From an uncultured virus (IMG/VR IMGVR_UViG_3300044630_001076) (lineage: Duplodnaviria > Heunggongvirae > Uroviricota > Caudoviricetes > Crassvirales): DNA of 64,000 nucleotides. Below are positions 3-64,000 of this stretch, one piece after another. The position numbers and the translations under genes are program-made. The notes below the pieces were generated by a model. It had not been told where the DNA came from, did no database searches, and was given only the letters and a program-made list of their open reading frames with translations. The stretch is taken from the IMG/VR virus record IMGVR_UViG_3300044630_001076; one strand, given 5' to 3'. Positions within the stretch are counted from its first letter, which is position 1. Every line of letters starts with the position of its first letter.

Positions 3-1295
3 GAGAAAGAATTCGAGCGTTATGGTAATCGCTCTATTGCATCTTTCTTACGTTTAGTAGGAGCTGAGATGCCGTCTAACTCTGACTTAATTAAGTGGGC
101 AGAGCAAGGACGTTTACACACAAAATATGTTAACGTAACAACTACAGCTGTAGCTGGTGCTGATACTGCAACATGGACTGTGAATGATTCTAACGTAACA
201 GTTAACTTCCGTGTTAACCAAACTGTATTCTTGTCAGCTAACGCTGGTTCTGCTTCTGATAAAGCAATCATTACTGCAGTTGACTCTGCTAATGATACCT
301 TTACTGTAGCTTACTACGCAGGTGGTGGACAAACAATTGCTGCATCTACTGTATCAACTGCTTTCGTTTACGGTTCTGAATACACTAAAGGATCTACTGG
401 AATGGTTGGTTCATTAGAATCAGAAGACATCTTCTTCGAGAACAAGCCTATCATCATCAAGGACAAGTACACAGTATCTGGTTCTGACATGGCTCAAATC
501 GGATGGGTTGAAGTAACTTCTGAAAATGGTGCTACTGGATACTTATGGTACATCAAATCTGAGCACGAGACTCGTTTACGTTTCGAAGACTACTTAGAGA
601 TGTCAATGGTTGAAGGTGTTCCTGCTGAGGCTAGTTCAGGTGCTTTGGCTTACTTAACAGTTGCTGCTTCAAACGTACAACCTGGTGCTGCTGGTACTGA
701 AGGTTTATTTGATGCTGTTGCAACTCGTGGTAACGTATGGGCAGGTGGTAACCCTACTACATTGTCAGACTTCGATTCAATCATCCAACGTCTAGACAAG
801 CAAGGTGCTATCCAAGAGAACGTAATTTTCTTGAATCGTCAATTCTCATTCGATATCGATGATATGTTGGCTTCTCAGAACTCTTACGGTACTAACGGTA
901 CTTCTTACGGTTTGTTTAACAACGATGAGAACATGGCTTTGAACTTAGGTTTCAAAGGCTTCAAGCGTGGTTATGACTTCTACAAGACTGACTGGAAATA
1001 CTTGAACGATGCTACTCTTCGTGGTGGAATCGTAGGTGGAGCTATCAATGGTATCTTGGTACCTGCAGGTTCTACTTCAGTATACGATCAAATCTTAGGT
1101 AAAAACGCTAAACGTCCGTTCTTACACGTTCGTTACCGTGCTTCTGAGACTGAAGATCGTCGCTACAAGACTTGGATCACAGGTTCTGCCGGTGGTGCTC
1201 AAACTAGCGATCTAGATGCAATGGAGGTTAACTTCTTATCTGAGCGTGCTTTATGTACACTTGGTGCGAATAACTTCTTCTTGTTCGAAGCTTAG
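3..1295 (+). CDS. Major capsid protein (5' truncated by window)
   Basis: Frame is open from nt 3 (EKEFERYGNRSIASFLRLVGAEMP...), so the true start lies upstream of the window. Strongly biased codons and a following terminator. Resembles Bacteroidetes podovirus capsid proteins (WAEQGRLH, RFEDYLEM, SERALC..GANNF). Confidence 0.85.
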   Translation, partial: EKEFERYGNRSIASFLRLVGAEMPSNSDLIKWAEQGRLHTKYVNVTTTAVAGADTATWTVNDSNVTVNFRVNQTVFLSANAGSASDKAIITAVDSANDTFTVAYYAGGGQTIAASTVSTAFVYGSEYTKGSTGMVGSLESEDIFFENKPIIIKDKYTVSGSDMAQIGWVEVTSENGATGYLWYIKSEHETRLRFEDYLEMSMVEGVPAEASSGALAYLTVAASNVQPGAAGTEGLFDAVATRGNVWAGGNPTTLSDFDSIIQRLDKQGAIQENVIFLNRQFSFDIDDMLASQNSYGTNGTSYGLFNNDENMALNLGFKGFKRGYDFYKTDWKYLNDATLRGGIVGGAINGILVPAGSTSVYDQILGKNAKRPFLHVRYRASETEDRRYKTWITGSAGGAQTSDLDAMEVNFLSERALCTLGANNFFLFEA

Positions 1296-2843: not shown

Positions 2844-3739
2844 TGACTCAAGAAGAATATTACACCAATGATGGGGTAGCACCTACAGACAAAAACTGGG
2901 GCACTTACCAAAATGTCACATTAAAGGAGATTGTTAACAATTTCCAATTAATGTACGTGGATGATGGCGATTTGTTAAATAACATAAATCGCTACAAAAT
3001 CCTATTTCACGCTAAACGTGGATTGCAAGAATTGCAGTATGATGGCAATCGTGTTATCAATGCTTTGCAATTAAGCGTTGGTGATAATTTAAAATTTGTG
3101 TTACCTCCTGACTATGTCAATTGGGTTCGCATTTCTTTATTCTGCGGAGGCATATTGTATCCAATGAGTGAAAATTTGCAAGCTAATTCAGCAACAGAAT
3201 ATTTACAGGATAACACTTATGCTATTACATTTGATGAAAATGGCAATGCGTTAATAGTTACATCTAAATTAGATGCATCAAGATTAATTGGATTGAATCA
3301 ATGCTACTGCGAGTATAACGACCAATGGGGTTGGTATTTGGATGGATTGTGGTATTTTAATTATCCGGGTGGGCAGTACTACGGATTAAATACCGAAGCA
3401 GCCACCGCCAACCCTACGTTTACTATTAATAAAACAGAAGGTGTTATTAATTTTAGTACAGGCGTGCATCGCCAATCAGTTGTATTAGAGTATATCTCTG
3501 ATGGACTATATGGGCTAACAGATGAGCAAATCCCTGTGCCTAAATTAGCCGAAGAGTATTTGTATTCTTACATCAAATGGGCTATCTTAAACACAAAGGC
3601 TAATCAGCCTGAGTACATTATTAATAGAGCTCGTAAAGAAAAAACATCTAATTGGAGAAATACTAAAATCAGATTAAGTAATTTACATCCTGGTCGCTTG
3701 TTAATGAACATGAGAGGCCAATCTAAGTGGATAAAATAA
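2843..3739 (+). CDS. Second tail ring / structural protein
   Basis: ILFHAKRGLQEL, LPPDYVNWVRIS and LEYISDG motifs; translationally coupled to the upstream gene. Confidence 0.6.
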   Translation: MTQEEYYTNDGVAPTDKNWGTYQNVTLKEIVNNFQLMYVDDGDLLNNINRYKILFHAKRGLQELQYDGNRVINALQLSVGDNLKFVLPPDYVNWVRISLFCGGILYPMSENLQANSATEYLQDNTYAITFDENGNALIVTSKLDASRLIGLNQCYCEYNDQWGWYLDGLWYFNYPGGQYYGLNTEAATANPTFTINKTEGVINFSTGVHRQSVVLEYISDGLYGLTDEQIPVPKLAEEYLYSYIKWAILNTKANQPEYIINRARKEKTSNWRNTKIRLSNLHPGRLLMNMRGQSKWIK

Positions 3740-13997: not shown

Positions 13998-16900
13998 ATG
14001 CCAGATCAATTACCAGTACCTTCGGCAGAAGAAGCAAAGAAGTTTAAATCATCAGCTTCGTCTAGTGGTTCAACAGGTGGATCAAGCCTACCTGTTCCAT
14101 CGGCTGCTGATATACAAAAATTTAAATCATCTACGGCTCAAAAAAAAAATCCAATTCCTGCGGCTGGAGCTTCTGCTTCCGTGGTTACAAAACCTTCTTC
14201 GGTTTCAAATCAACCGGCAAAACCAGCACCTTCGGCATCATCATCAGCCGCACCTAAACCCGTGAGTGTGATACCTGGCAAAAGCCAAGGTAAATTACTT
14301 ATGGTTCAGCCTAAAAAAACTGCGGGAGAAGCAGCTCTTGAAGCTAGTGAAGCTAAAAGAGATGTATTCTCTCCTAATTTTTACGGAGGTCCTGCCACAA
14401 AAAAACAGCCGACTCAAGCTCCTGCCCCTAAAAAAGTTGGAGCATTAGAAGACATTGGAAATACATTCATGTCTTCTGTAAATCGTTTTGCTTCAGGTAT
14501 TGCTGGAATCCCAAACATGGGTCAACAAGCTGCACTTATGTTGGCTACAAAAATGTATGGAATTGATGATGAATATAATGCATTACCTGTTGCTGCAAAA
14601 AAAGAATTAGGCAATGTATTGTCAGCTGTTAGTGTTGGTAGTTCTATCCCATCACCTGCTTTATCTCGTCAGGCACAAGAATATTTTATTAAAAAAAGTG
14701 ATGAGTTTTTAGAAAACACAAACAAGTCAGATAAATTTTTAAATGAGAGAATTGGTGATTTTTATAAAGCTCCTTCAGTAGAAAAAGCAACTGATTTGTT
14801 TTTAGAGATACCTAAAGGTTTTGCAGGTAGCTTGCCATACATGATTAATCCAATGGCTGGTGCTGTTAGTGCTGCAAGTGAACAATACAATAAAGACATA
14901 CAAGAAGCAGATGGTAAATTAGGATGGGGTCAGTTATTAAATGCTGGGGTTACTGGGGTTAGTGAATTCTACATTGAAAGACTATCAAATCAAATTTTAA
15001 ATAAATCCATTAAACAAGCTATTAATTCGCCTAAAGTCGCAAAAGATTTGGCTGAAGGATTTGTAAAATCCGTATTGAAAGATGTTGGTATGGAGGGTGC
15101 TGGTGAAGGATTAACAGAATTTGTTCAATCAGTAAGTGATGATATTACAAAAGGTAGAGATATTGATTGGGTAAAAACTGCCAATCAAACTTTAGATGCG
15201 GCTATAACAGGTTCAGGTATTGCTGGAGGTATGCGTACTACTGGTGCTGGAGTTGGGTACTTATCTAAGAAGGTTATGTCTGCCGTTGATAAAAAGAAGT
15301 TAGATAAAAATACTGCTGCTATCATGGACCTTAATACTAAGAAAGGACCTGATAACTCACCTGAAGTAAACGCTGTAATTAATAGTAAGATAAATGAGTT
15401 AAATGATCAAAATAAAAATATCATTAACTCTAATGTTGATAAAGTTAAATCTTTATCAGATGCTCAAATTCAAGAAATTGTTAAGATAGATAGTGACATC
15501 CAAACTATTAATAAAAACCGTGATGCCATTGTCGCTGATCCTAACTTAAATGATACAGAAAAGCAATCATTGCTTGACCATTTAAGATCACAGGCTGCAA
15601 CTTTAACTGAGCGTAAAACTGCTGTTGAAAATCAAAAGGCATTAACAGCGGAATCTTTTCCTAAACCTGATGAGTTTGGGACTGTTACATTTGAGTTTCC
15701 ATCTGAGAAAGATATTCCTAGCGAACTTAAAGGTTTAACTCCTACAGGTAGAGGTTCCGCTTCGGATGAAAAAGGTAACAGAAAAATATTTTTATCATTT
15801 AGTCAAGAACAAATAGACCCAATTATCGATGCCATTCAAAAGCAAACAACAAGTCAAGTACCTGTACAGCCAGAAGCCGGAACTAGCCTCCAAGTGGCGG
15901 AAGGAGAACCCCAAGCAGAACCTCAAGTCCCTACCCAAGAAGGTCAAAGGGAAGAAATAGAGAGAAGAAGACAGGAGGAATTATCTCCTTATGCTAGTCA
16001 GACTACTGTATCGGAAGAAACCTTTGAAGGATTGGACCCAGAAGGCAATCCTGTTGTATATGTTGTTAGAACAATGGCTGACGGAAGTAGACAAGTTCGT
16101 TTGCAATTAACAACAGATGGCAAAGTTGAAACTTTCCCTATAGGAAAAGCTGGGAAAGATATTACTTTTAGCAATGCTGAATTGATTGAAAAATCTTATG
16201 CAAGCGAGCCAAAATCCATATCTATAAATAATAATCCTATCAATCCAACAAAAATAAATAAGATAAATGAAAAGTATGATGCAGAATTAGCAGCATTAGA
16301 ACAACCTACTACCCAAGAAGGTCAAGGGCAAGAAGTAACGCCTACTGAAGAAGAATTTGTTTACGAAACAAATCCTGAAAATAAAAATCAATGGGTTGGC
16401 GATTTTGAAATTATTGATAATAGAGGAGGCAAAGCTGATTTAGAAATAAATGGAAGAGAGGGTAATTGGTATGTAGCTAATAATGTTACAGGTAGATTAA
16501 TGATGGCAAGATCAAAGTCGGATGCACAAAATATTATAAACGATGCAGACTCGTATGACTTTGGACAAGGAGAAACATTTACACGTCCTGTTCAAGCACA
16601 ACCTGTACAAAAAACTGCACCCGTATCAAAGATTGGTGAAGTTACAGATGAAGGGGCAAAGCAAGAAAAAATAAATTTAGATGAAGAGGTGTCCCTACTT
16701 GAGCAGTTACTTGAACAGGAAGAAACAGCTCCTACTCAATCCGCTGGTATATCAATATCAAGTGATACCGATATTGAAGAGTTGAGAAATAGGTCTCAGT
16801 CAAGGTCTCAGAAGGCTACAACACAAGAGGAGAAGGATTCTGCCAATACAAGGGTTAAAATTATAGATACAGCGAAGAAGGCTATTAAGACATTAAAGTC

Positions 16901-19900
16901 TATATTCCCTGATGTTGATATTGTAATCCATGACGATGAAGGGAGCTACAATGCTGCTATGTCAGAAGTGAATGGAGTTTCTGGATCTAGAGGCAACTTC
17001 TTTATTGATACAACTCCCGATGGTAAGACAACAGGTAGAATTGATATTAATCTAACTAAGGCTAACTCTAGAACAGTAGCTCATGAGATTGCTCATGGTA
17101 TATTACTAAAGACCTTTGGAGATAATAAGAACTTGTTCAATGATTTTAGAACAAGACTATCTAAGGTTATTAAGAGTGATGTTAATCAGCAACTAAATGA
17201 TTTTGCTAATCAGTATGTTGATCCTGCTACAGGTGAGTTGCTAGATGTAAACCACGAAGAGTTTTTGGCTGAACTGACTGGTATCTTACAACAGCAAGAG
17301 ACTAAAGTATCTGTGACTACAATGCAGAAACTTGCTGCTTTGATTAATGAGTTTGTATCTAAGATTACTAATGGTAAGTTTAAACCTTTTGAGGACACTA
17401 AGAATACTAAGGATGTGGTTGATTTCTTTAACAACATATCTAGTACAATAAGAGAAGGTGGTGAAATACAGGAGTTAAATGGAGGGGGAGAGGTAGGTAC
17501 ATTTAACTTTACTTCAAGAAGTAGTTTAGATGCAAAGGAAGCTCCAAGTGTAGCGAATGATAGCAGGTCTTTCATTAGAGATTTAGTCGAGGATGTAGAC
17601 ATGATAGATTTCAATGGAAGAAAGTTTGTTACCAATATGTATGACTATACTACTGCTGGAACTACTGACTTGGGGAATGGTTTAACTATAAATATGCTCG
17701 GAGGTAAAAACTACGTTCCATATATGATGTCTTTACAGGACAAGAAGATAGGGGATGTTTCTAATCTAGCAGCATTCAATACTAAGGCTCAAGCAGAATC
17801 ATTTGCACGAAACGCAATAAATGGAGATGCATCTTTATTTGCTCCGCACTCAGGTACATTGTCTGAGTCTTGGCAGTTTCAACAACACACGTTTGCGGAA
17901 CTTGTTAACTTGATTTTGGATAAAAATATAATGAGTAATACTGAATTGATTGATTTATTTAATAAAACAATTAGTTCAGAAGCTAGTAAAAAAGCTTTTA
18001 ATGCATTTAAATCCAAGTATGGTAAAAATATATCTAACTTTAATTCGTTTAAAAATAATCCTAAAAAAATAGTAGAACTATTAGATATTAAAAATAATTA
18101 TTCACCAAACTTAAGGAAGGCTCTAAATAATGCTATATCAGCAGACAAGACTTTTCAAAAAGCTATAGGTGTAAAAAACAAAGAAGAGTTTTTTAAAAGA
18201 ATAATGGACCCTCTAAATGATGGCGTTCAGGGTGGAGAGATAATTAACTTAGTTGAATTTGATCCTAAAACATTTCAAATAGTTCAAACAAAGCCAGGAT
18301 CTTTAGACCATCACCCTTCATTTGGGTGGGCTATTCTATCCAAGATAAACGGAATATATCAGCCTACTAAATTTTACCAATCAAGTAATGTAACTGAAAG
18401 TTATGTTAAGTACAATAAGTCAGGTGAGCAGGTTTCAAGAAAGGCTGAAGAAAGTAACTTTGATAAAAAGAATGTATCATCAAGTGCAGGTTCAATTCCA
18501 AAAGTTGCAGAATTTATTGAGCAATCTGAAGTAAAAAGCAGATCTCAATTACCTAGCAATGACGCACAGAAAATTGTTAATCTAGGACGTGCTAATGGCT
18601 TTTCTGATCAGGCTATATCAAATGTGTTGGAGAAACGTGGTTTTACTCAAGGGGCCATTGATATTGCGTTGGGTAACAAGCCCTTTAGTGCTGAAGAGGG
18701 AGCACCTACTGTGCCATTTACTAAAGAGGAAAAGAAAAGCCCATTAAGTAGTATCCCTGGGTACGAGAGAATGATGGGTGAGGTAGATGGAATTATTGAG
18801 AAGTCATTTAAGCGTGGTGTATCTTTTGATAAAACTATGGACAATGCCATGCAGTATATGTCTAAGTCTAAAGTATATGAAGATGCTAACGATACCCAAC
18901 GAGAAGAAATGGTTCGTGAGGTTCGTAAAATGTTTAATAAAAAAGAGAAGAAAGCTCCTAGTGTTAAAAAACTAGGATTAAAAGAACCAGCTAAAAAAAC
19001 TTTAGTTGACACAAAAAAACTTTTAGATGAACGTCTTGTTGAAATAGATCAGTCTATCAAGGAAGGACAAAGAAACTTTAAGCAGGCTGTCAAAGAAATG
19101 GCTACCGAGATTAAAGCTATGCTTCCTAAAGGAATGTTCTCAAAAGCACAAGTATCAACTATTACAAATGCATTAGCAACCAATCTACTTAATCCTAAAT
19201 TGAGAGAAGCTGCTATTGAAAAAGTAAATCGTATTGTCAATAATGTTGAATATGCTACAAAACTTAAAAATGCTTATGACATTAAGGCTGCAATACGTAA
19301 GACTTTAAAAACAGGAAAGGAAATTATTGATGTAGAAAAAACTGTACGCAATTTCTTGAAAATAGATCCTAGATTGGTATCTGATTTGGAGCAATATGTT
19401 GAACGTGCAAATGAAGTGTTTGAGGCTATTAGAAATGTACGTGTTAAAGGCGATGATGTTATTGGTAGAAGTGCTATGATTTTAGCTGATATTAATGCAT
19501 ATGCTGACAAACAAAATGAAATACAAGATGAAATAAATAAAAATTCATTATTAGACAGGTATGATAATTTAGTACAGGAAGGAAAGATAAGCGGAGATAT
19601 GTCATTAAATGATATTAAAAAATACATAGCTTCCATAGAAGAGGATCCAAAGAAAGCCAATGCTAAAAAGTCGGAAAAAGTTAGAGAGTTTACTAAAGAA
19701 GCTTTTGCTGATTTATCTGATACAGTAAAACAAATGATAGAGGATGGAGAGATAGATAAAGAAGATGTTGACTTTGACATGGTGAGCAAATTTGCTGACA
19801 TGGACATTGAGGCTTTGACAATTGATCAGCAATTAAATGCTGTTGATTCACTTGACAATTTTGTTGTCAATGGTGTTACTAGCCGAATGGGTGCTATTTT

Positions 19901-22529
19901 ACAAGCATATACTGGCGTAACAAATTCCGCAAAAGATGCAGGCTCTGGCATGAAAGCTCGCCCATTGTCATATGGTCTAATTGGACGTTTGGCTTATTTA
20001 AGAAAAATAACTACCAAAGGTTTAATGGGTAACCTATTAGGGGGAGTTGCTGCAATAGGTGATCTTTATAATAATTTATCTGCCATATATATATCAAAAA
20101 CGGAATCATTAATTACAGGATTATTCCGTAGCACAGGCATGGCAATTAAGTTCATGAAAAACTCTGGGTTTTCAGGCATAGTTAGGGGATTTGTTCAAGG
20201 AAAGAAAATCGCTAATGACTTTGCTAAAAAGTATGCAGATAAGTTTGAGAAATTAAAACCTAATGGCAAAGCATTTAATGATGCATCAAATGTTTTTGAA
20301 CGTGGTATTTTTGCTGACTTATCTAGAAACATTAAGAATGGTACTCCTGATCAAATTAAAACTGAGTTTGATCGTAGGATGAAACAATTACGATTAACTA
20401 TTGAAACACTTCGTGCAACCGGTAAAAAACAATTAGTTGATAAAGCTAATTTGTATGATGGTGTTTATCAAAAGGTTAAGAACGCTGAAAATATTGAGGA
20501 GGTTAAACTTAATATTGATCCTATTAATCAAGAAGCAGTAAAGGATTTTCAGGATATGTGGAGAAAATATTATTCTGAATTTAAAAAAATGGCTGCTGAT
20601 TATTACAATATAATATTGGATGAGGATGTTAATTACTCACCTGATATGTATGAAAAATTAGCAGAAGAATTATCTGATGATTTAATTACAAAGGGTGCAT
20701 TTAAAATGGCATTTGATGTGGTTAGCACAGAAGAAGTTGGCACATTAAAGAGAAACCAAAGAATAGATGGATTGCCTATAAGTGATAAAACTAAAGAAAT
20801 CAATCGTGTTAGAGATTATGATTTTGATTTCAATAATATCAATGCATTAGAGAAGACTCTTATTGATGTAAGAACAACTCCATATGTACAGCAATTTGAA
20901 GGCTATACTAACTCTCCATCATTTAAAGAAATCTTCCCTGATTTTGATGATAGACAGATGGTTAAAAAGCGTTTGAACTTTAATATTAATTCTTTGCGTG
21001 AAAGACAAGATACTTATTCATCTGATACAGCAAGAAAGATTAATAGATTTGTTACTGCATTAAGTAAATACGGAACACGTATTGGATTAGGATCATTATC
21101 GGCAGCTCCTAAGCAATCTATACCAATGATGGGTAATACCATGATTAATTTAATAAATGATTTAGGTAGCTTTGGAATGGGTGTCGCTGATTTTTGGAAT
21201 AAAGATGCGATGGATTTCTTGGAGAATTCAGGATATGGTATATCGCTACGTGGTGCTGAATCTCAAACATCAATTGACTTTGCTGAAAAATTAATTGATC
21301 GAGCCAACCAAGGAAAAGTAGGTGATCTTAGTGAATCATTATCCAAATTAGGCGATATGTACATCGAGAAGTTCTTAAAGAATCCCGATGTTACAGTTGC
21401 TAATATGGCTTGGCTTGCTTATTACCGAAATAAGTTGAAGTCAATGGGTGTTGACATGAACACATTTGACTGGAAGAATCATGAGCTTAATGAGGAGGCG
21501 GCAGACTATGCTGAATTTAAAGTTCAGGATCAGCAGAACATGAATATCTCTGAGTTGGGAGGTAAGTTACTAGCATCAAAAGATGCTACGACTAAAACTA
21601 TTCGTCAGTTATTATTTCCATTTGCATCTTATCAATTTAACTTAAAAGATAAGAACAATAGAAATATTACAATGCTTACTTCTAAGACATCAACTAATCA
21701 GGAGAAAGTAAATGCAGCTAAATCATTAGCAGCTGGACTTGTGGAATCATATATGTTCCAAACTATTCAAGCATCAATAGGGGTTCTATTGTTAAAAGCA
21801 GCATATGCAGCTATAGGATACGAAGAGCCGGAGGAGGAGAAAACAACTGGAATATGGGATGCTATTAAAAAGGCAATGCCATTTGTAAGAACTACATCGC
21901 CTACCGAAAAGTTCAACGATTCTATATTTGTAGGTAAGAGTATATTTGAATTTGTGGCTCCAATACCACCACAACTTGAATATCTAACTATGCTTGGACT
22001 GAACGATTTATTAGATGTAATCGAAGGTGGTACTCCTGAAGAACAATTGAAGGAAAAGAAAAAGAAAGAAAAAGAATCTGAAATTTCTGTTACAGGACGT
22101 AAAATTAAAAAAAGAAGAAAATTAGCATTTGGACAAATCCCAGAGGATAAGGAAGCGATAAAAATAAAAGAAAAAATGGAACAACCATTTAGATTCTTTG
22201 CTAGAGAAGAACTTCCTTATACTCAAGTAATAGGTGACATTGTAGGTGGTGTTCCTGCTGTAGGTTTAGAGGCACTTCTTGATTTTAAGTCTCGTACAAA
22301 TGAAGCATATAGCGGATCATTTAAAGATAAGTATGGTGAATATGAGTATTCTGAAGAGCAAAAGAAAATACTTAAGCAATCTTTAATACCAAGAGCTATG
22401 GTTGCTTTCAACATAGCACCACGTGAATTCTTAACCATATCTAACAATATTGTTAAGGCAGTCAACAAGAAGGCTAAAGAGGATGCTAAAGAAAAGAAGA
22501 AACAGGAAACAAAAAAGTTTAGATTCTAA
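13998..22529 (+). CDS. Giant polyvalent ejection protein with zincin-like metallopeptidase domain
   Basis: 2843 aa; VAHEIAHG...HEEFLAEL (HExxH + E); modular, long helical C-terminus; last gene of the structural operon. Confidence 0.75.
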   Translation: MPDQLPVPSAEEAKKFKSSASSSGSTGGSSLPVPSAADIQKFKSSTAQKKNPIPAAGASASVVTKPSSVSNQPAKPAPSASSSAAPKPVSVIPGKSQGKLLMVQPKKTAGEAALEASEAKRDVFSPNFYGGPATKKQPTQAPAPKKVGALEDIGNTFMSSVNRFASGIAGIPNMGQQAALMLATKMYGIDDEYNALPVAAKKELGNVLSAVSVGSSIPSPALSRQAQEYFIKKSDEFLENTNKSDKFLNERIGDFYKAPSVEKATDLFLEIPKGFAGSLPYMINPMAGAVSAASEQYNKDIQEADGKLGWGQLLNAGVTGVSEFYIERLSNQILNKSIKQAINSPKVAKDLAEGFVKSVLKDVGMEGAGEGLTEFVQSVSDDITKGRDIDWVKTANQTLDAAITGSGIAGGMRTTGAGVGYLSKKVMSAVDKKKLDKNTAAIMDLNTKKGPDNSPEVNAVINSKINELNDQNKNIINSNVDKVKSLSDAQIQEIVKIDSDIQTINKNRDAIVADPNLNDTEKQSLLDHLRSQAATLTERKTAVENQKALTAESFPKPDEFGTVTFEFPSEKDIPSELKGLTPTGRGSASDEKGNRKIFLSFSQEQIDPIIDAIQKQTTSQVPVQPEAGTSLQVAEGEPQAEPQVPTQEGQREEIERRRQEELSPYASQTTVSEETFEGLDPEGNPVVYVVRTMADGSRQVRLQLTTDGKVETFPIGKAGKDITFSNAELIEKSYASEPKSISINNNPINPTKINKINEKYDAELAALEQPTTQEGQGQEVTPTEEEFVYETNPENKNQWVGDFEIIDNRGGKADLEINGREGNWYVANNVTGRLMMARSKSDAQNIINDADSYDFGQGETFTRPVQAQPVQKTAPVSKIGEVTDEGAKQEKINLDEEVSLLEQLLEQEETAPTQSAGISISSDTDIEELRNRSQSRSQKATTQEEKDSANTRVKIIDTAKKAIKTLKSIFPDVDIVIHDDEGSYNAAMSEVNGVSGSRGNFFIDTTPDGKTTGRIDINLTKANSRTVAHEIAHGILLKTFGDNKNLFNDFRTRLSKVIKSDVNQQLNDFANQYVDPATGELLDVNHEEFLAELTGILQQQETKVSVTTMQKLAALINEFVSKITNGKFKPFEDTKNTKDVVDFFNNISSTIREGGEIQELNGGGEVGTFNFTSRSSLDAKEAPSVANDSRSFIRDLVEDVDMIDFNGRKFVTNMYDYTTAGTTDLGNGLTINMLGGKNYVPYMMSLQDKKIGDVSNLAAFNTKAQAESFARNAINGDASLFAPHSGTLSESWQFQQHTFAELVNLILDKNIMSNTELIDLFNKTISSEASKKAFNAFKSKYGKNISNFNSFKNNPKKIVELLDIKNNYSPNLRKALNNAISADKTFQKAIGVKNKEEFFKRIMDPLNDGVQGGEIINLVEFDPKTFQIVQTKPGSLDHHPSFGWAILSKINGIYQPTKFYQSSNVTESYVKYNKSGEQVSRKAEESNFDKKNVSSSAGSIPKVAEFIEQSEVKSRSQLPSNDAQKIVNLGRANGFSDQAISNVLEKRGFTQGAIDIALGNKPFSAEEGAPTVPFTKEEKKSPLSSIPGYERMMGEVDGIIEKSFKRGVSFDKTMDNAMQYMSKSKVYEDANDTQREEMVREVRKMFNKKEKKAPSVKKLGLKEPAKKTLVDTKKLLDERLVEIDQSIKEGQRNFKQAVKEMATEIKAMLPKGMFSKAQVSTITNALATNLLNPKLREAAIEKVNRIVNNVEYATKLKNAYDIKAAIRKTLKTGKEIIDVEKTVRNFLKIDPRLVSDLEQYVERANEVFEAIRNVRVKGDDVIGRSAMILADINAYADKQNEIQDEINKNSLLDRYDNLVQEGKISGDMSLNDIKKYIASIEEDPKKANAKKSEKVREFTKEAFADLSDTVKQMIEDGEIDKEDVDFDMVSKFADMDIEALTIDQQLNAVDSLDNFVVNGVTSRMGAILQAYTGVTNSAKDAGSGMKARPLSYGLIGRLAYLRKITTKGLMGNLLGGVAAIGDLYNNLSAIYISKTESLITGLFRSTGMAIKFMKNSGFSGIVRGFVQGKKIANDFAKKYADKFEKLKPNGKAFNDASNVFERGIFADLSRNIKNGTPDQIKTEFDRRMKQLRLTIETLRATGKKQLVDKANLYDGVYQKVKNAENIEEVKLNIDPINQEAVKDFQDMWRKYYSEFKKMAADYYNIILDEDVNYSPDMYEKLAEELSDDLITKGAFKMAFDVVSTEEVGTLKRNQRIDGLPISDKTKEINRVRDYDFDFNNINALEKTLIDVRTTPYVQQFEGYTNSPSFKEIFPDFDDRQMVKKRLNFNINSLRERQDTYSSDTARKINRFVTALSKYGTRIGLGSLSAAPKQSIPMMGNTMINLINDLGSFGMGVADFWNKDAMDFLENSGYGISLRGAESQTSIDFAEKLIDRANQGKVGDLSESLSKLGDMYIEKFLKNPDVTVANMAWLAYYRNKLKSMGVDMNTFDWKNHELNEEAADYAEFKVQDQQNMNISELGGKLLASKDATTKTIRQLLFPFASYQFNLKDKNNRNITMLTSKTSTNQEKVNAAKSLAAGLVESYMFQTIQASIGVLLLKAAYAAIGYEEPEEEKTTGIWDAIKKAMPFVRTTSPTEKFNDSIFVGKSIFEFVAPIPPQLEYLTMLGLNDLLDVIEGGTPEEQLKEKKKKEKESEISVTGRKIKKRRKLAFGQIPEDKEAIKIKEKMEQPFRFFAREELPYTQVIGDIVGGVPAVGLEALLDFKSRTNEAYSGSFKDKYGEYEYSEEQKKILKQSLIPRAMVAFNIAPREFLTISNNIVKAVNKKAKEDAKEKKKQETKKFRF
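15829..15960 (+). CDS. Nested +1-frame 43-aa basic protein (MPFKSKQQVKYLYSQKPELASKWRKENPKQNLKSLPKKVKGKK)
   Basis: Read manually ATG 15829 to TAG 15960. Resembles small stand-alone phage MPFKS proteins as I recall them. Its duplicated 3' end differs only at sites synonymous in this frame. Confidence 0.6.
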   Translation: MPFKSKQQVKYLYSQKPELASKWRKENPKQNLKSLPKKVKGKK

Positions 22530-58698: not shown

Positions 58699-58942
58699 TT
58701 CAGGATACAAAGCTGTAGAAGAGTTAATTAAGGTTGCAGAAGAAAGAATCGTTACTCACGCTGAGGATGACTTAAGTGCAGATAAACTAAAGAATGCAGC
58801 TCAGGCTAAGAAGTTAGCTATTATGGATGCATTTGAGATTCTTAAGCGTGTAGAGGAGGAAAGCAACATCATTGATGGTGTTGTAAATAATCAGGTTAAT
58901 ACTAATCGTGGATTTGCTGAATCTAGAGCAAAAACAAAATGA
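58661..58942 (+). CDS. Putative terminase small subunit
   Basis: Helical 93 aa directly upstream of terL. Confidence 0.55.
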   Translation: MSKITELKKRIIDSGYKAVEELIKVAEERIVTHAEDDLSADKLKNAAQAKKLAIMDAFEILKRVEEESNIIDGVVNNQVNTNRGFAESRAKTK

Positions 58943-61152
58943 GTTTATACAAAATAGTAGATAATGTTGTTCCCCAAAAAATACTTGACAAGAAAAATGC
59001 CAAGAAAGAATGGGAGTATGGCTATAACCCTGAGTTTGATATTGTCATTATATCTAAAGATGGAACTTTGGGTGATATATATGATATTCAAAATCTTAGA
59101 GTAGGATTGCCAAAGACTCCCGAAAAGGTATCATATAAATCTGATAAGTGGGAGCCAATCATATTACCTAAGGAATTGTCACGCATTAAAACAATCTTTG
59201 ATTGGAATAGGCGTGATAACTCTTTTAAGAACCAATGGGTAGATTTTATTGAACAAGAGTTTGACCGAAGGGAGTATGGATATTGGTTTATTAATAATGG
59301 TGTGAAGACTTATATGTCAGGTCATCATTATATGTACCTCACATGGTCTAAGACTGATGTTGGTCATCCAGACTTTCGTGAGTCAAACAGAATATTCTTT
59401 TTATTCTTTGAAGCCTGCAAAGCAGACACAAGATGCTTTGGGATGTGCTATCTAAAAAATAGACGTTCTGGTTTTTCTTTTATGGCCTCCTCTGTTTCCG
59501 TAGATATTGCTACCTTAGCAAAAGATGCTCGTATTGGTATGGTCTCTAAAACAGGACCTGATGCTAAAAAGATGTTTACGGATAAGGTTGTACCTATTGC
59601 CAACAACTATCCATTCTTTTTCCAGCCTGTGCGTGATGGTATGACCACACCAAAGACTGAACTTGCATTCCGTGTTCCTGCAGAAAAGATTACACGCAAG
59701 AATATGGATCAGGAGAAAGATGAAGCGATGGATGGGTTAGATACATCTATTGACTGGCGTAACACAGCAGACAACTCGTACGATGGTGAGAAGCTTCGTT
59801 TCTTGATTGAGGATGAGGCTGCTAAGTTAGAAAAGCCAATGAACATTGAAAATGGTTGGCGTATTCGTAAGACTTGTCTTCGTCTAGGTGCCAGGATCAT
59901 TGGTAAGTGTATGATGGGTTCTACATCGAACGCATTAGATAAAGGTGGAGAAAACTATAAAAAATTATATTATGACTCAGACGTCACAAAAAGAAACAAG
60001 AACGGTCAGACTATATCGGGTCTTTATTCGCTCTTTATACCGATGGAGTATAACTTTGAGGGATACATTGATCAATACGGTCACGCAGTATTAGAGAAAC
60101 CTGAAAAGCCGGTAAAGTCAGCAGAAGGAACTTGGATAACAGAAGGTGTTATTGAGTATTGGAATAATGAGGTATCCTCATTAAAAGCAAATCCCGATGC
60201 ACTTAATGAATTCTATCGACAGTTCCCAAGAACAGAGTCTCATGCATTCCGTGATGAGACTAAATCATCTTTGTATAATTTAACTAAAATCTATCAGCAG
60301 ATTGATTATAACGATGGGCTAATACAGGATCACGTATTAACTCGTGGATTCTTTCATTGGAAAAATGGGGAGAAAGATACAGAGGTTATTTGGACACCAG
60401 ATAAGAATGGTAGATTCTTGGTATCATGGATACCTGAAATTGCATTGCGTAATAATTTTATAACTAAAAATGGAACACGTTATCCTCTCAACGAACACAT
60501 CGGGGCATTTGGATGTGACCCTTACGATATTTCGGGTGCTACTTTTGGTGGGTCGAATGGCTCTCTTCACGGTCTTACTAAGTTCAATATGGCGAATGCT
60601 CCGTCAAATGCGTTCTTCTTAGAATACATTGCTCGTCCACAGACAGCTGAGACATTCTTTGAAGAAGTACTGATGGCTTGTGTATTTTATGGTATGCCAA
60701 TACTTGCCGAGAATAACAAAGCTCGTTTGCTGTACCACTTTAAGAATAGAGGCTATAGAGGATTCTCAATGAACAGACCTGACAAGCACAAAACTAAATT
60801 GTCATTTACTGAGATTGAGATTGGCGGTATACCATCCTCGAGTGAGGATATGAAACAAGCACACGCAGCTGGGATTGGAACTTACATTGAGAAGTATGTA
60901 GGATATGACCTAGAAGGAACATACAGGAATCCTGACGAAATTGGCGATATGCCATTTACTAGAACTCTATTGGATTGGTCTAAATTTAATGTGAACGATA
61001 GAACAAAGTATGATGCTTCTATCAGTTCAGGATTAGCGATTATGGCTAACCAAAAGCATATTTACCTGCCCGAGAAAAAAGAGTCAAAAATTAGCATTAA
61101 ATTTGCAAGATACGATAACAGCGGTTCAGCGAGTAGACTGAAAAATATATGA
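58939..61152 (+). CDS. terL: Terminase large subunit
   Basis: KNRRSGFS (Walker A), IEDEAAK (Walker B), GSTSN, GCDPYD and ENNK motifs. Confidence 0.9.
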   Translation: MSLYKIVDNVVPQKILDKKNAKKEWEYGYNPEFDIVIISKDGTLGDIYDIQNLRVGLPKTPEKVSYKSDKWEPIILPKELSRIKTIFDWNRRDNSFKNQWVDFIEQEFDRREYGYWFINNGVKTYMSGHHYMYLTWSKTDVGHPDFRESNRIFFLFFEACKADTRCFGMCYLKNRRSGFSFMASSVSVDIATLAKDARIGMVSKTGPDAKKMFTDKVVPIANNYPFFFQPVRDGMTTPKTELAFRVPAEKITRKNMDQEKDEAMDGLDTSIDWRNTADNSYDGEKLRFLIEDEAAKLEKPMNIENGWRIRKTCLRLGARIIGKCMMGSTSNALDKGGENYKKLYYDSDVTKRNKNGQTISGLYSLFIPMEYNFEGYIDQYGHAVLEKPEKPVKSAEGTWITEGVIEYWNNEVSSLKANPDALNEFYRQFPRTESHAFRDETKSSLYNLTKIYQQIDYNDGLIQDHVLTRGFFHWKNGEKDTEVIWTPDKNGRFLVSWIPEIALRNNFITKNGTRYPLNEHIGAFGCDPYDISGATFGGSNGSLHGLTKFNMANAPSNAFFLEYIARPQTAETFFEEVLMACVFYGMPILAENNKARLLYHFKNRGYRGFSMNRPDKHKTKLSFTEIEIGGIPSSSEDMKQAHAAGIGTYIEKYVGYDLEGTYRNPDEIGDMPFTRTLLDWSKFNVNDRTKYDASISSGLAIMANQKHIYLPEKKESKISIKFARYDNSGSASRLKNI

Positions 61153-63578
61153 ACGACCCTTTAATAATGATTAATCCGACCAACTTCCCAACACAGTTGG
61201 CAACGGATGCAGAGAAAGCATCTCAAGAGTTTGGATTAAAAGTAGGACAAAGTATCATGTGGGAATGGTTTGCCAAGACAGGCAACAATTGTCGCTACTA
61301 TTCTCAATGGATTGACTTTCACCGCATTAGGCTATATGCTCGTGGTGAACAATCAATCGCAAAATATAAAAGTCAATTCGAAGTTGATGGCGATATGTCG
61401 CATATTAACTTAGACTGGACTCCTGTGCCCATTATTCCTAAGTTTGTTGATATCGTAGTTAATGGAATGAATGACCGCCTTTTTGAGGTAAAAACATATG
61501 CACAGGATTCTATGTCTATGGAAAGAAGAACTCAATTCCAAGAGATGGTTGAGGCTGATATGGTGTCAAAAGAATTTTTAATTCAGACACAGCAAGAGTT
61601 TGGTATTGATGCATTTAATGTTCCTCTTCAAGATTTACCTGAAAATGATCAAGAATTAAATCTTTATATGCAACTTAGATATAAGCCTGCTATTGAGATT
61701 GCAGAAGAGGAGGCAATAAATACAATTTTAGATGTTAACCATTATAGCGATATAAGAAAACGAGTTGATTATGATATTACTACTATTGGTATTGGGATGG
61801 TCAAACATTCTTTTGTTCCAGGAACAGGAGTTAGGGTAGAATATGTTGACCCTGCTAATATGGTATATAGTTACACGGAATCGCCAACATTTGACGATTG
61901 TTTCTATTTTGGTGAAGTTAAGCAAGTACCGATTACTGAACTTATTAAAATCAAGCCAGATATTACTAATGAAGAGTTGGCAGAAATTCAACAACTTGGT
62001 ACAGCTTGGTATAATTATTATGGTGTACTTCGTCCTTATCGTAGTGATTTATTTAATCGTGATGTTGTTACGCTTATGTATTTCAATTACAAAACCGATA
62101 AGACATATGTTTATAAAAAGAAATACACAGACAACGGAGGAACAAGAGTAATTGAGAAGGATGAAAACTTCCAAGTTCCGGAAGGGATGGAGGAGCGTTT
62201 TGAACGTATAGAAAAACGTATCGATGTTTGGTACGAAGGTGTAATGGTTATGGGATCAAGTTACTTGCTTAAGTGGGAACTTGCTAAGAACATGGTTCGT
62301 CCTAAGTCTGCATCTCAATATGCATTGCCTCAGTACATTGCTGTAGCACCACGTATGTATAAAGGAGTTATTGAGTCATTGACTCGTAGAATGATTCCTT
62401 TTGCAGACTTAATTCAATTGACCCATTTAAAGTTGCAACAAGTATTACAGCGTGTTGTACCTGATGGTGTTTACATTGATGCAGATGGTATCAATGAAGT
62501 TGACTTGGGTACAGGTGCTGCCTACAATCCAGAAGATGCCTTGCGTTTATACTTCCAAACAGGTAGTGTTATTGGTAGAAGTATGACCGTAGATGGTGAT
62601 CTTAACCATGGGAAAATACCGATTCAAGAACTTAATACTAATAGCGGACAAGGAAAAATTACTGCATTGATTAATGCATACAATCAGTACCTATCAATGA
62701 TCAGGGATGTTACCGGGTTAAATGAAGCTAGAGATGCATCAACTCCAAACCCTGATGCATTGGTAGGTGTACAAAAACTTGCAGCTCTTAATTCAAACAC
62801 AGCTACTCGCCATATATTGGAGGGAAGTTTATTTATTACTAAGCGTTTATCGGAAGCATTATCTTGCCGTATTGCTGATATTTTAGAATACTCTGATTTT
62901 AAAGAAGAGTTTACTATGCAAATTGGTAAGTATGCAGTTGGTGTTTTAGATGAAATCAAGCATTTGTATTTACATGATTTTGGTGTGTTTATCGAAGTAG
63001 CACCTGATGAAGAAGAAAAGGCTCAATTAGAGGCTAATATTCAAGTTGCCATGCAACGTGACCAAATTAGTTTAGAAGATGCTATTGATATTCGTCAGAT
63101 GAAGAATCTTAAGTTGGCTAATGAATTGCTTAAGCTAAAGCGTAAGAAGAAGCAACAAGAAGACATGAAGAATGAGCAAGCTAAAATTCAAATGCAAACT
63201 CAAGGAAACATTCAGTCATCTCAAGCATCTGCTCAGGCTACACTACAAAAGGTTCAAGCAGAGTCACAAGCTAAAGCACAACTTGCTCAAGCTCAAATGC
63301 AGTTTGATATTCAACGTATGCAGGCAGAGGCTCAGATTAAAGAGCAATTAATGCAAGTTGAATTTTCTTATAATATGCAACTTAAAGGAATGGAGGTAGA
63401 TAAGATTAAGCAGTTGGAGACAGACAGGGAAAAAGCTAAGGATAATAGAACTAAATTACAAGCAACACAGCAGTCTAAGTTAATTGAGCAACGCCAAAAA
63501 GACTTACCTGCTATGAACTTTGAGTCTGAGGAAGATTCATTAGATGGCTTTGATTTAGAGCAGTTTAATCCAAGATAA
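61149..63578 (+). CDS. Portal protein
   Basis: After terL; PIIPKFVDIVVNG and IRDVTGLNEARD motifs; Gln-rich C-terminal barrel typical of podoviruses. Confidence 0.85.
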   Translation: MNDPLIMINPTNFPTQLATDAEKASQEFGLKVGQSIMWEWFAKTGNNCRYYSQWIDFHRIRLYARGEQSIAKYKSQFEVDGDMSHINLDWTPVPIIPKFVDIVVNGMNDRLFEVKTYAQDSMSMERRTQFQEMVEADMVSKEFLIQTQQEFGIDAFNVPLQDLPENDQELNLYMQLRYKPAIEIAEEEAINTILDVNHYSDIRKRVDYDITTIGIGMVKHSFVPGTGVRVEYVDPANMVYSYTESPTFDDCFYFGEVKQVPITELIKIKPDITNEELAEIQQLGTAWYNYYGVLRPYRSDLFNRDVVTLMYFNYKTDKTYVYKKKYTDNGGTRVIEKDENFQVPEGMEERFERIEKRIDVWYEGVMVMGSSYLLKWELAKNMVRPKSASQYALPQYIAVAPRMYKGVIESLTRRMIPFADLIQLTHLKLQQVLQRVVPDGVYIDADGINEVDLGTGAAYNPEDALRLYFQTGSVIGRSMTVDGDLNHGKIPIQELNTNSGQGKITALINAYNQYLSMIRDVTGLNEARDASTPNPDALVGVQKLAALNSNTATRHILEGSLFITKRLSEALSCRIADILEYSDFKEEFTMQIGKYAVGVLDEIKHLYLHDFGVFIEVAPDEEEKAQLEANIQVAMQRDQISLEDAIDIRQMKNLKLANELLKLKRKKKQQEDMKNEQAKIQMQTQGNIQSSQASAQATLQKVQAESQAKAQLAQAQMQFDIQRMQAEAQIKEQLMQVEFSYNMQLKGMEVDKIKQLETDREKAKDNRTKLQATQQSKLIEQRQKDLPAMNFESEEDSLDGFDLEQFNPR

Positions 63579-63617: not shown

Positions 63618-64000
63618 ATGGAAAATTTTCAAGTAAAACTGGTAGACTTTGAGGAAAAGTCTGTCCAAGAAGTAGAAGAGACTCTACTTAAAGTACATGA
63701 GGAAAAAACAGGTATCGAGCAGTTCGAAACATCTGAAGAAGTTAAAGTTGATCTATCTGCTGAACCCGACACAGCATTAGGATCAGGAGAAGAGCAATCA
63801 ACTCCGCAGTCATCATTTGGCGATGAAGACGTTCTTTCATATTTGAAAAGCAAGTATAATAGAGAGGTTAACTCTTTAGATGATTTGTTTACACCTGTTG
63901 AGCCTCAAAAGGAATTACTTCCTGAGGATGTTGAAGCATTTTATCGCTTCAAAAAAGAGACAGGGCGTGGACTAGAAGACTTCTATCGTGTTAATCAGGA
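63618..64000 (+). CDS. Putative capsid scaffolding protein (3' truncated)
   Basis: Open acidic ORF MENFQVKLVDFEEKSVQEVEE... after the portal; TACTTTTG -7 motif at 63589-63596. Confidence 0.7.
   Translation, partial: MENFQVKLVDFEEKSVQEVEETLLKVHEEKTGIEQFETSEEVKVDLSAEPDTALGSGEEQSTPQSSFGDEDVLSYLKSKYNREVNSLDDLFTPVEPQKELLPEDVEAFYRFKKETGRGLEDFYRVNQ

Follow-up and report, generated by a model that had tools for sequence, protein, structure and literature searches.

A conserved small gene, very probably protein-coding, embedded in the +1 frame of a giant virion gene of an uncultured phage

Can DNA that a phage already reads as part of a giant virion protein also hold a second, much smaller gene? The question is raised by a stretch of 64,000 nucleotides from an uncultured virus (IMG/VR record IMGVR_UViG_3300044630_001076), which was analysed as a whole and is called the window here. 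An open reading frame (ORF) of 43 codons lies on its + strand at 15829..15960, from an ATG at 15829 to a TAG at 15958-15960, in the +1 frame relative to an ORF of 2,843 codons at 13998..22529 (+). The initial annotation, made from the letters of the window, had proposed that this ORF is an overprinted gene; its coordinates and its translation, which is exactly MPFKSKQQVKYLYSQKPELASKWRKENPKQNLKSLPKKVKGKK, were confirmed. The nested product has a net charge of +12, two predicted helices and a Lys-rich tail. The giant ORF, the last gene of a + strand block of virion genes, reads the same DNA (15828..15959, +) as DAIQKQTTSQVPVQPEAGTSLQVAEGEPQAEPQVPTQEGQREEI, which corresponds to residues 611-654 of the giant protein and has a net charge of -6; the low-complexity linker described earlier for the main frame is thus an acidic spacer. 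Based on the comparisons given below, 15829-15960, referred to as the cassette, is very probably a genuine protein-coding gene that lies within the giant virion gene, in its +1 frame.

The peptide has many relatives. A phmmer search with the window peptide returned 55 matches at E <= 1e-3 among 1.84 billion representative proteins, nearly all of which are proteins of 43-70 aa aligned from their own first residue, and the size range of the family overall is 40-70 aa. The resemblance to stand-alone small phage proteins, which had been suggested at first, was borne out by these matches and by annotated separate genes, including gene 48 of Streptomyces phage FlowerPower and a small gene of marine phage 023Pt_psg01 located between portal and head genes. 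Homologues that are alike at the protein level and differ in DNA also exist, for example in GC-rich Streptomyces phages. The residues M1, P2, F3, S5, Q8 and P17, an aromatic residue near position 23, the motif LP..V and a Lys/Arg tail are conserved in the family. In the window peptide, the MPFKS.xQ N-terminus, the Pro at about 17, the W/F at about 23, LP..V and the Lys/Arg-rich tail that mark the MPFKSK small-protein family were all found; it is 40-63% identical to separate members from residue 1, with the invariant S5 and Q8 present. These comparisons make the window peptide a member of a large and still unnamed family of phage proteins that are small and basic.

A confident AlphaFold2 model (79 sequences, mean pLDDT 86.7) shows a hairpin of two helices, at residues 6-15 and 17-26, and after it a Lys-rich tail in extended form. 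The phrog_1375 profile, with which the family coincides in part, was matched by 8 of 25 aligned relatives (best E 8.6e-07) and by two proteins that carry the module as an N-terminal fusion. The window peptide had no match in Pfam, its model had none in the PDB by Foldseek at E <= 0.001, and a search of Pfam with 79 family members found neither DUF3008 nor any other shared family. DUF3008 (PF11450) had been considered on a single lead, an Atlas cluster (score 0.85) in which 15% of the members carry this domain; it was rejected, as 0/79 members matched it even at E <= 10. A PDB-sequence profile search returned only designed propeller repeats at about 3 bits per repeat and was judged spurious.

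Based on their sequences, the peptides can be categorized as class A, the window type (MPFKSK.Q.K[YF]L[YF]SQ), class B, with two Cys (..K.C..), and class C (..KYL..TN..). The two conserved Cys of class B (L003-L122, e.g. L011 at 2899..3030, -; ..KAC..KWDCKKW..) lie one in each predicted helix and may pair across the predicted hairpin. These two-Cys variants are found in scaffold-position hosts and in some giant hosts, and the window type is free of Cys.

Nesting is not peculiar to the window. A tblastn search of GenBank phages placed matches to the peptide inside the giant genes annotated 'structural protein' in MW202828 and in Elemovirus phages; these matches are complete ATG-to-stop ORFs of 42-43 aa in the +1 frame of the giant genes, located at 3583..3711 in L001, and a further 67 Elemovirus matches show only a 'structural protein' annotation beneath. 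Gene finders forbid genes inside genes, which is why the family is unannotated in L001 (Elemovirus) and MW202828; the view that gene callers miss a dual-coding cassette here was therefore correct. Viral contigs were searched with a degenerate DNA pattern covering codons 1-10 (pattern 1), in which most bases are fixed and wobble positions and some whole codons are free. It matched at least 120 loci, and 120 of these, together with the window and the two GenBank phage loci L001 and L002, make up the 123 instances considered here. Among the matches listed, 118 of the 123 are nested in the +1 frame of a longer ORF. The ATG, the open frame and the stop are likewise kept in 118/123, a figure conditional on a pattern that itself demands ATG and to which start-less cassettes are invisible; the remaining codons, at least 26, and the stop are left unconstrained by it. 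ORF length is 36-60 aa in 110 of 111 unique cassettes and 84 aa in the remaining one. The host genes are of two kinds, giant ORFs, which hold window-type peptides, and a gene of about 380-416 aa in the scaffold position, that is, between the portal (phrog_6547) and the capsid-like phrog_13704.

Two frames cross each cassette, and the pattern of substitution distinguishes between them. For codons beyond the tenth, i.e., outside those fixed by pattern 1, nucleotide diversity at peptide positions 1/2/3 was.218/.103/.379 in class A,.246/.241/.385 in class B and.188/.167/.387 in class C. The peak is at the peptide third position and the minimum at the peptide second position, which is the third position of the host frame. 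In the flanks of the host genes (46 pair-sides), the differences at main-frame positions 1/2/3 numbered 1239/813/2453, an ordinary coding pattern, whereas within the cassette (36 codons, after 11 different-class pairs with more than 40 of 108 bases differing had been dropped) they numbered 259/99/76 and peak at the peptide-frame third position instead. When the count was restricted to cassette codons 11-33 in 29 disjoint pairs, the values were 154/74/57, which differ from the flanks with p=5.7e-30 (chi-square). Changes that are silent in the peptide and alter the host protein account for 137 of these 285 differences, and 13.9% of possible changes are of this kind; the opposite kind, host-silent and peptide-changing, accounts for 48/285, with 19.9% of possible changes. 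Since the compared pairs share alignable flanks, these differences arose after nesting. The comparison thus indicates that purifying selection within the cassette follows the peptide frame, as had been proposed, with the phase of substitution switching to that frame inside the cassette.

This result bears directly on the first alternative, according to which the main-frame spacer is the selected object and the +1 ORF is what remains, untranslated, of a small gene that was captured, its likeness to small proteins being a by-product. The main frame is indeed open, a motif, [DNY]A[IV]Q[KE]Q.., recurs in it, its acidic composition is itself maintained, and the case for the peptide is a case from sequence comparison. 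However, main-frame third positions are the least variable and first positions the most variable, the reverse of the flanks of the same genes, in pairs whose homologous flanks place their divergence after nesting. There is also no spacer where there is no ORF, as in the giant gene of G001 and the scaffold-position gene of the window, and the narrow length range of the ORF (36-60 aa in all but one of the unique cassettes) does not suit a remnant. This explanation is considered highly unlikely.

The host frame is also constrained, but only in kind. Cassette GC is.492 in the window, against.350 in the surroundings, and.457 against.336 across the family. The excess is found at the peptide wobble position, where GC3 is.724 compared with.199 in the host flanks; among Lys codons, AAG to AAA is 864 to 235 in the cassettes, and in the flanks AAA to AAG is 1091 to 350. 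A wobble T before a codon starting with AA, AG or GA was never seen (0/1754), and it is avoided because a stop in the host frame would result. G or C at the peptide wobble position makes the host codon Glu or Gln, not Lys, and the spacers are therefore net negative: this holds for 110 of 111 unique cassettes, with a mean charge of -8.1 for spacers and +12.1 for peptides. The spacers of these 111 cassettes consist of 22% E, 13% Q and 11% V. The counts indicate that wobble choice in the peptide frame keeps the host frame stop-free and acidic.

If the peptide is made, its translation would start independently at ATG 15829 of the late structural mRNA, in hosts that are likely Bacteroidota, a group that does without Shine-Dalgarno sequences. 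In the family as a whole, A makes up 63% of the 15 positions preceding the ATG, compared with a background of 42.5%, and occupies -3 in 79% of cases; true gene starts in the window have 53% A and internal ATGs 34%, and the family start context is similar to the former. It also fits initiation in Bacteroidetes as outlined in PMC6847099, where it is Shine-Dalgarno-free and favours A at -3. The second alternative is that ribosomes shift into the +1 frame near 15829, so that the product is a shortened N-terminal module of the giant protein with the basic sequence as its tail, and separate initiation does not occur. One protein would suit this: P0003 (1,075 aa) carries the peptide in frame at its C-terminus with 92% identity. 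The closest loci found for the host protein part of P0003, however, L132 (66% identity, best segment residues 1-1059) and L134 (86%, residues 913-1069 only), are laid out like the other nested loci, the peptide frame having stops five codons upstream. Metagenome relatives of P0003 show the usual nesting as well, and no relatives of it were found in viral contigs. P0003 itself, known from its protein sequence alone, may be a frameshifted contig or a real fusion. The peptide frame is closed four codons upstream of the ATG in the window and is open for just 0-24 codons upstream in the 123 instances (among the matches listed), and separate homologues begin exactly at MPFKS. Independent initiation is preferred to frameshifting because of the strictly kept ATG, the closed upstream frame and these separate homologues, and a frameshift seems very improbable.

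The limits of the conserved region coincide with those of the ORF. In the giant genes, the stretch 31-90 nt upstream of the ATG has a diversity of.68-.69 and the last 30 nt before the ATG one of.56; the value falls to.11-.26 in the first 120 nt of the ORF, and then rises to.48 in its last 30 nt and.70 directly past the stop. The cassette is therefore an island of conservation that begins at the ATG and ends at the stop, and the giant-protein sequence on either side of it is unrelated between loci.

The tail of this island is repeated in the window. The last 30 nt of the ORF (15931-15960) recur at 16309..16338 (+) with 26/30 identity; the four differences are all at peptide-frame third positions, which are main-frame first positions, and both copies read LPKKVKGKK followed by a stop in the +1 frame. 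The initial annotation had taken these synonymous differences as evidence of selection on the nested frame. The recurrence and the synonymy stand, but not their value as independent proof at that place. The second copy, cut off from the rest of the cassette, has stops just upstream in the +1 frame (stop-QH-stop-NNLLPKKVKGKK-stop) and no start, and is not an ORF. It agrees with the tail of the functional cassette of L118 at 29/30 positions, compared with 26/30 for the window's own tail. As it is non-coding and nearly identical to the L118 tail, the 'synonymous' differences are allelic differences between working cassettes. Directly after it comes the VTPT junction seen at cassette ends in other phages. 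The two tail copies enclose a module of the giant protein, 15961..16308 (+), which reads IERRRQEEL...KYDAELAALEQP. Among the 33 class A rows compared, L118 and L053 have similar modules after the cassette, and L036 is without this module, its cassette being joined directly to a module located further downstream in the window gene. These comparisons identify 16309-16338 as a relic left by module exchange at the cassette tail. That the conserved 132 nt form a nucleic-acid element (a recombination hotspot for module shuffling or an RNA structure) and not a +1 coding sequence is scarcely credible, for although the cassette is a conserved island between unrelated modules and the truncated copy of its tail sits where two modules meet in the window, its variation has a three-base period in the peptide phase, protein-level homologues have different DNA and Rfam gave no match; a role as a recombination junction is compatible with coding, and the two can coexist.

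The location of the small gene differs among relatives. When 15 whole records, six of which are 96-100% complete, were searched with a profile, each gave a single family match; as the records were picked for having a match, the result shows that none has two. In the complete genome G001, it is the scaffold-position gene that contains the cassette, and the giant gene, of 2,936 aa, lacks a spacer of this kind. The window shows the opposite arrangement: the cassette is in the giant gene, and neither a cassette nor a cassette relic was found in the scaffold-position gene, where a MAFFT hint of a decayed copy was rejected (best DNA score 15, shuffled mean 16.3). With a further pattern, directed at the Arg-10 subtype, 120 loci were listed, of which 43 are separate small ORFs, 23 form the N-terminal part of a protein of at least 100 aa, 8 are nested in an ORF of at least 300 aa, 45 lie inside a shorter open span (many of these loci being only 636 nt long) and 1 has its own frame open for at least 40 codons upstream.

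Neighbourhoods were annotated for 13 loci with a separate small gene. L210 has the small gene after a portal-like gene and before the scaffold and the major head protein, in that order; the large terminase and the portal or probable portal flank it in L176 and L194, the latter being a 634-aa ORF without a PHROG match in L194. Structural or packaging neighbourhoods were also found at L209, L140, L158, L137, L163 and L171, and those of L146 and L161 are outside the head/packaging pattern. At L136 (3884..4036, -) and L172, the separate small ORF starts about 10 nt past the stop of a 1,300-aa giant gene, phrog_32588, which is also matched by the giant gene of L016 with a nested copy. These comparisons show the small gene in a giant gene, in a scaffold-position gene or directly after a giant gene, and the neighbourhood points to the head/packaging module. 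At L136 and L172, a helicase (phrog_62) is on the other side of the small gene, as in the window. The module is also fused in frame to a minor-head/DarB-like domain in L138. In a separate group of proteins of 192-198 aa (L135, L165, L175, L178 and L179), the MPFKSK module is joined to a C-terminal part containing WDHPGCEDKVGK; no PHROG match was found for these fusion proteins.

Several points limit or count against the reading as a translated nested gene. Off-frame + strand ORFs of at least 30 aa inside the giant gene number 19, and 6/19 reach at least 43 aa, so that the length of the nested ORF by itself is not beyond chance expectation; the ORF exceeds chance because of homology and comparative evidence, not because of its length. 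The window's own start context is unremarkable, with A at 5 of the 15 upstream positions and T at -3, and no promoter-like site was detected upstream of the nested ORF by a promoter scan; a terminator scan found nothing relevant. The window peptide's own match to the phrog_1375 HMM is weak (E 0.0097, 17.3 bits), and the Pfam and PDB searches gave no fold or sequence match to any characterised protein. The in-frame peptide of P0003 and the ATG built into pattern 1 count on the same side, and translation of the peptide is argued from comparative data. Set against these points are the stand-alone homologues that were looked for and found, the kept start and open frame, and the substitution phase.

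The simplest reading of the comparisons would be that an old head-module gene has been overrun by its neighbours: the small gene would be the older one, large genes would have come to read through it, and its other frame would now serve them as a flexible acidic spacer. The product would be a helical-hairpin protein with a Lys-rich tail. It may act in head assembly or DNA packaging, or travel in the head bound to DNA; this is a guess, held with rather less than even confidence, drawn from neighbourhood, fusions and charge only. A broader and more speculative proposal, which we regard as possible but doubtful, is that a single-copy head-module gene has been swallowed repeatedly by scaffold and giant genes as these grew and swapped modules by reading through it, with its other frame at hand as an acidic spacer and the 132-nt cassette serving as a portable shuffling junction. 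The peptide (+12) and the spacer (-6 to -8) might bind each other and so load the small protein, attached to its host protein, into the head, a suggestion based on the opposite charges encoded by the same DNA.

The layout of the window resembles that of a podophage genome of about 60 kb. The large terminase is at 58939..61152 (+) and the portal at 61149..63578 (+), followed by the start of the scaffold-position gene (63618..63998, +), which is cut by the window end and holds no cassette in this part; many relatives carry the small gene nested there instead. The window begins inside the capsid-like gene phrog_13704 (3..1295), after which comes the run of virion genes that the 2,843-codon ORF ends. 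The scaffold-position gene, within which the window ends, normally precedes the capsid-like gene with which it starts, and the 64 kb are probably about one circularly permuted phage genome. By portal similarity, the closest records are MW202828 (64.6%), the Flavobacterium Elemovirus phages (47%) and Cellulophaga phage phi38:1 (35%), and for this reason the host of the window phage is probably a member of the Flavobacteriia.

The giant gene had been called an ejection protein, but 'ejection' is a label only; its product had no match in Pfam or PHROG, and the gene had no megablast match among phage records. A zincin-like HEIAH motif occurs at residue 1029 (window 17082..17096), and modules homologous to this giant gene were found in L036 and L081. 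L081 matches Pfam LPD23 clearly (1.4e-10) and SprT-like weakly (0.0013), in a region homologous to the HEIAH region of the window protein. Three antisense ORFs inside the giant gene, 17210..17635 (-), 18647..19012 (-) and 19274..19807 (-), of 141, 121 and 177 aa, may be chance ORFs. A second direct repeat in this gene (16170..16189 and 17934..17953; 20 nt, 90% identity, 1,764 nt apart) is probably also due to chance.

How does this arrangement compare with known systems? A literature search found no paper containing 'MPFKSK' and no description of the arrangement, subscription journals and supplements lying outside the search. The polyvalent or giant multi-domain virion proteins of phages, reportedly treated by Iyer et al. 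in 2017, are similar in that the host gene is giant and modular, with modules shuffled between relatives, and in the LPD23 and SprT-like matches of L081. The window protein differs in that it matches nothing in Pfam or PHROG itself, though it carries the HEIAH motif at residue 1029, and in the literature searched the polyvalent-protein concept does not include a gene concealed within a spacer; the present case suggests a route by which giant multi-domain virion proteins may be built and reshuffled. The family phrog_1375 has no assigned function in PHROGs v4, where nesting is not mentioned.

Overprinted genes are also known from small viruses (reviews PMC8227390 and PMC6195259). There, as here, both frames are constrained and the younger reading is of low complexity. 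In contrast to those cases, the short, well-folded gene would here be the old one and a long pre-existing gene would have been extended through it, so that the direction of overprinting seems reversed; moreover, for a tailed phage of about 60 kb, genome compression is no obvious driver. The locus offers a clear and well-controlled case from a large tailed phage in which both frames of one DNA stretch carry measurable constraint. The nested start can be removed by a host-frame-silent change, and Flavobacterium sp. BAL314 with its Elemovirus phages provides a cultured system.

Among known systems, the embedded Rz1/Rz spanin pair comes closest in architecture. Rz1 of lambda also lies in the +1 frame. 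For the two-component spanin genes Rz/Rz1 of lambda and their embedded architecture, see PMC6139136 and PMC5295617. In both systems, a small gene lies wholly inside a larger tailed-phage gene in another frame and may be embedded or separated across phages, and the window ORF shows the corresponding layout, being conserved and enclosed in a larger ORF on the same strand. An identity as a spanin (Rz1-like o-spanin) was considered and rejected, as the peptide has no lipobox Cys and the host gene encodes no inner-membrane partner. The window peptide differs from Rz1 in having no lipoprotein signal, no Cys and no hydrophobic stretch, and the hosts differ from Rz in being head-module genes (scaffold-position or giant virion genes) and not a membrane partner. 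Finally, unlike in Rz/Rz1, at least two unrelated genes serve as hosts for the one small gene, and the host frame reads the overlap merely as an acidic spacer.

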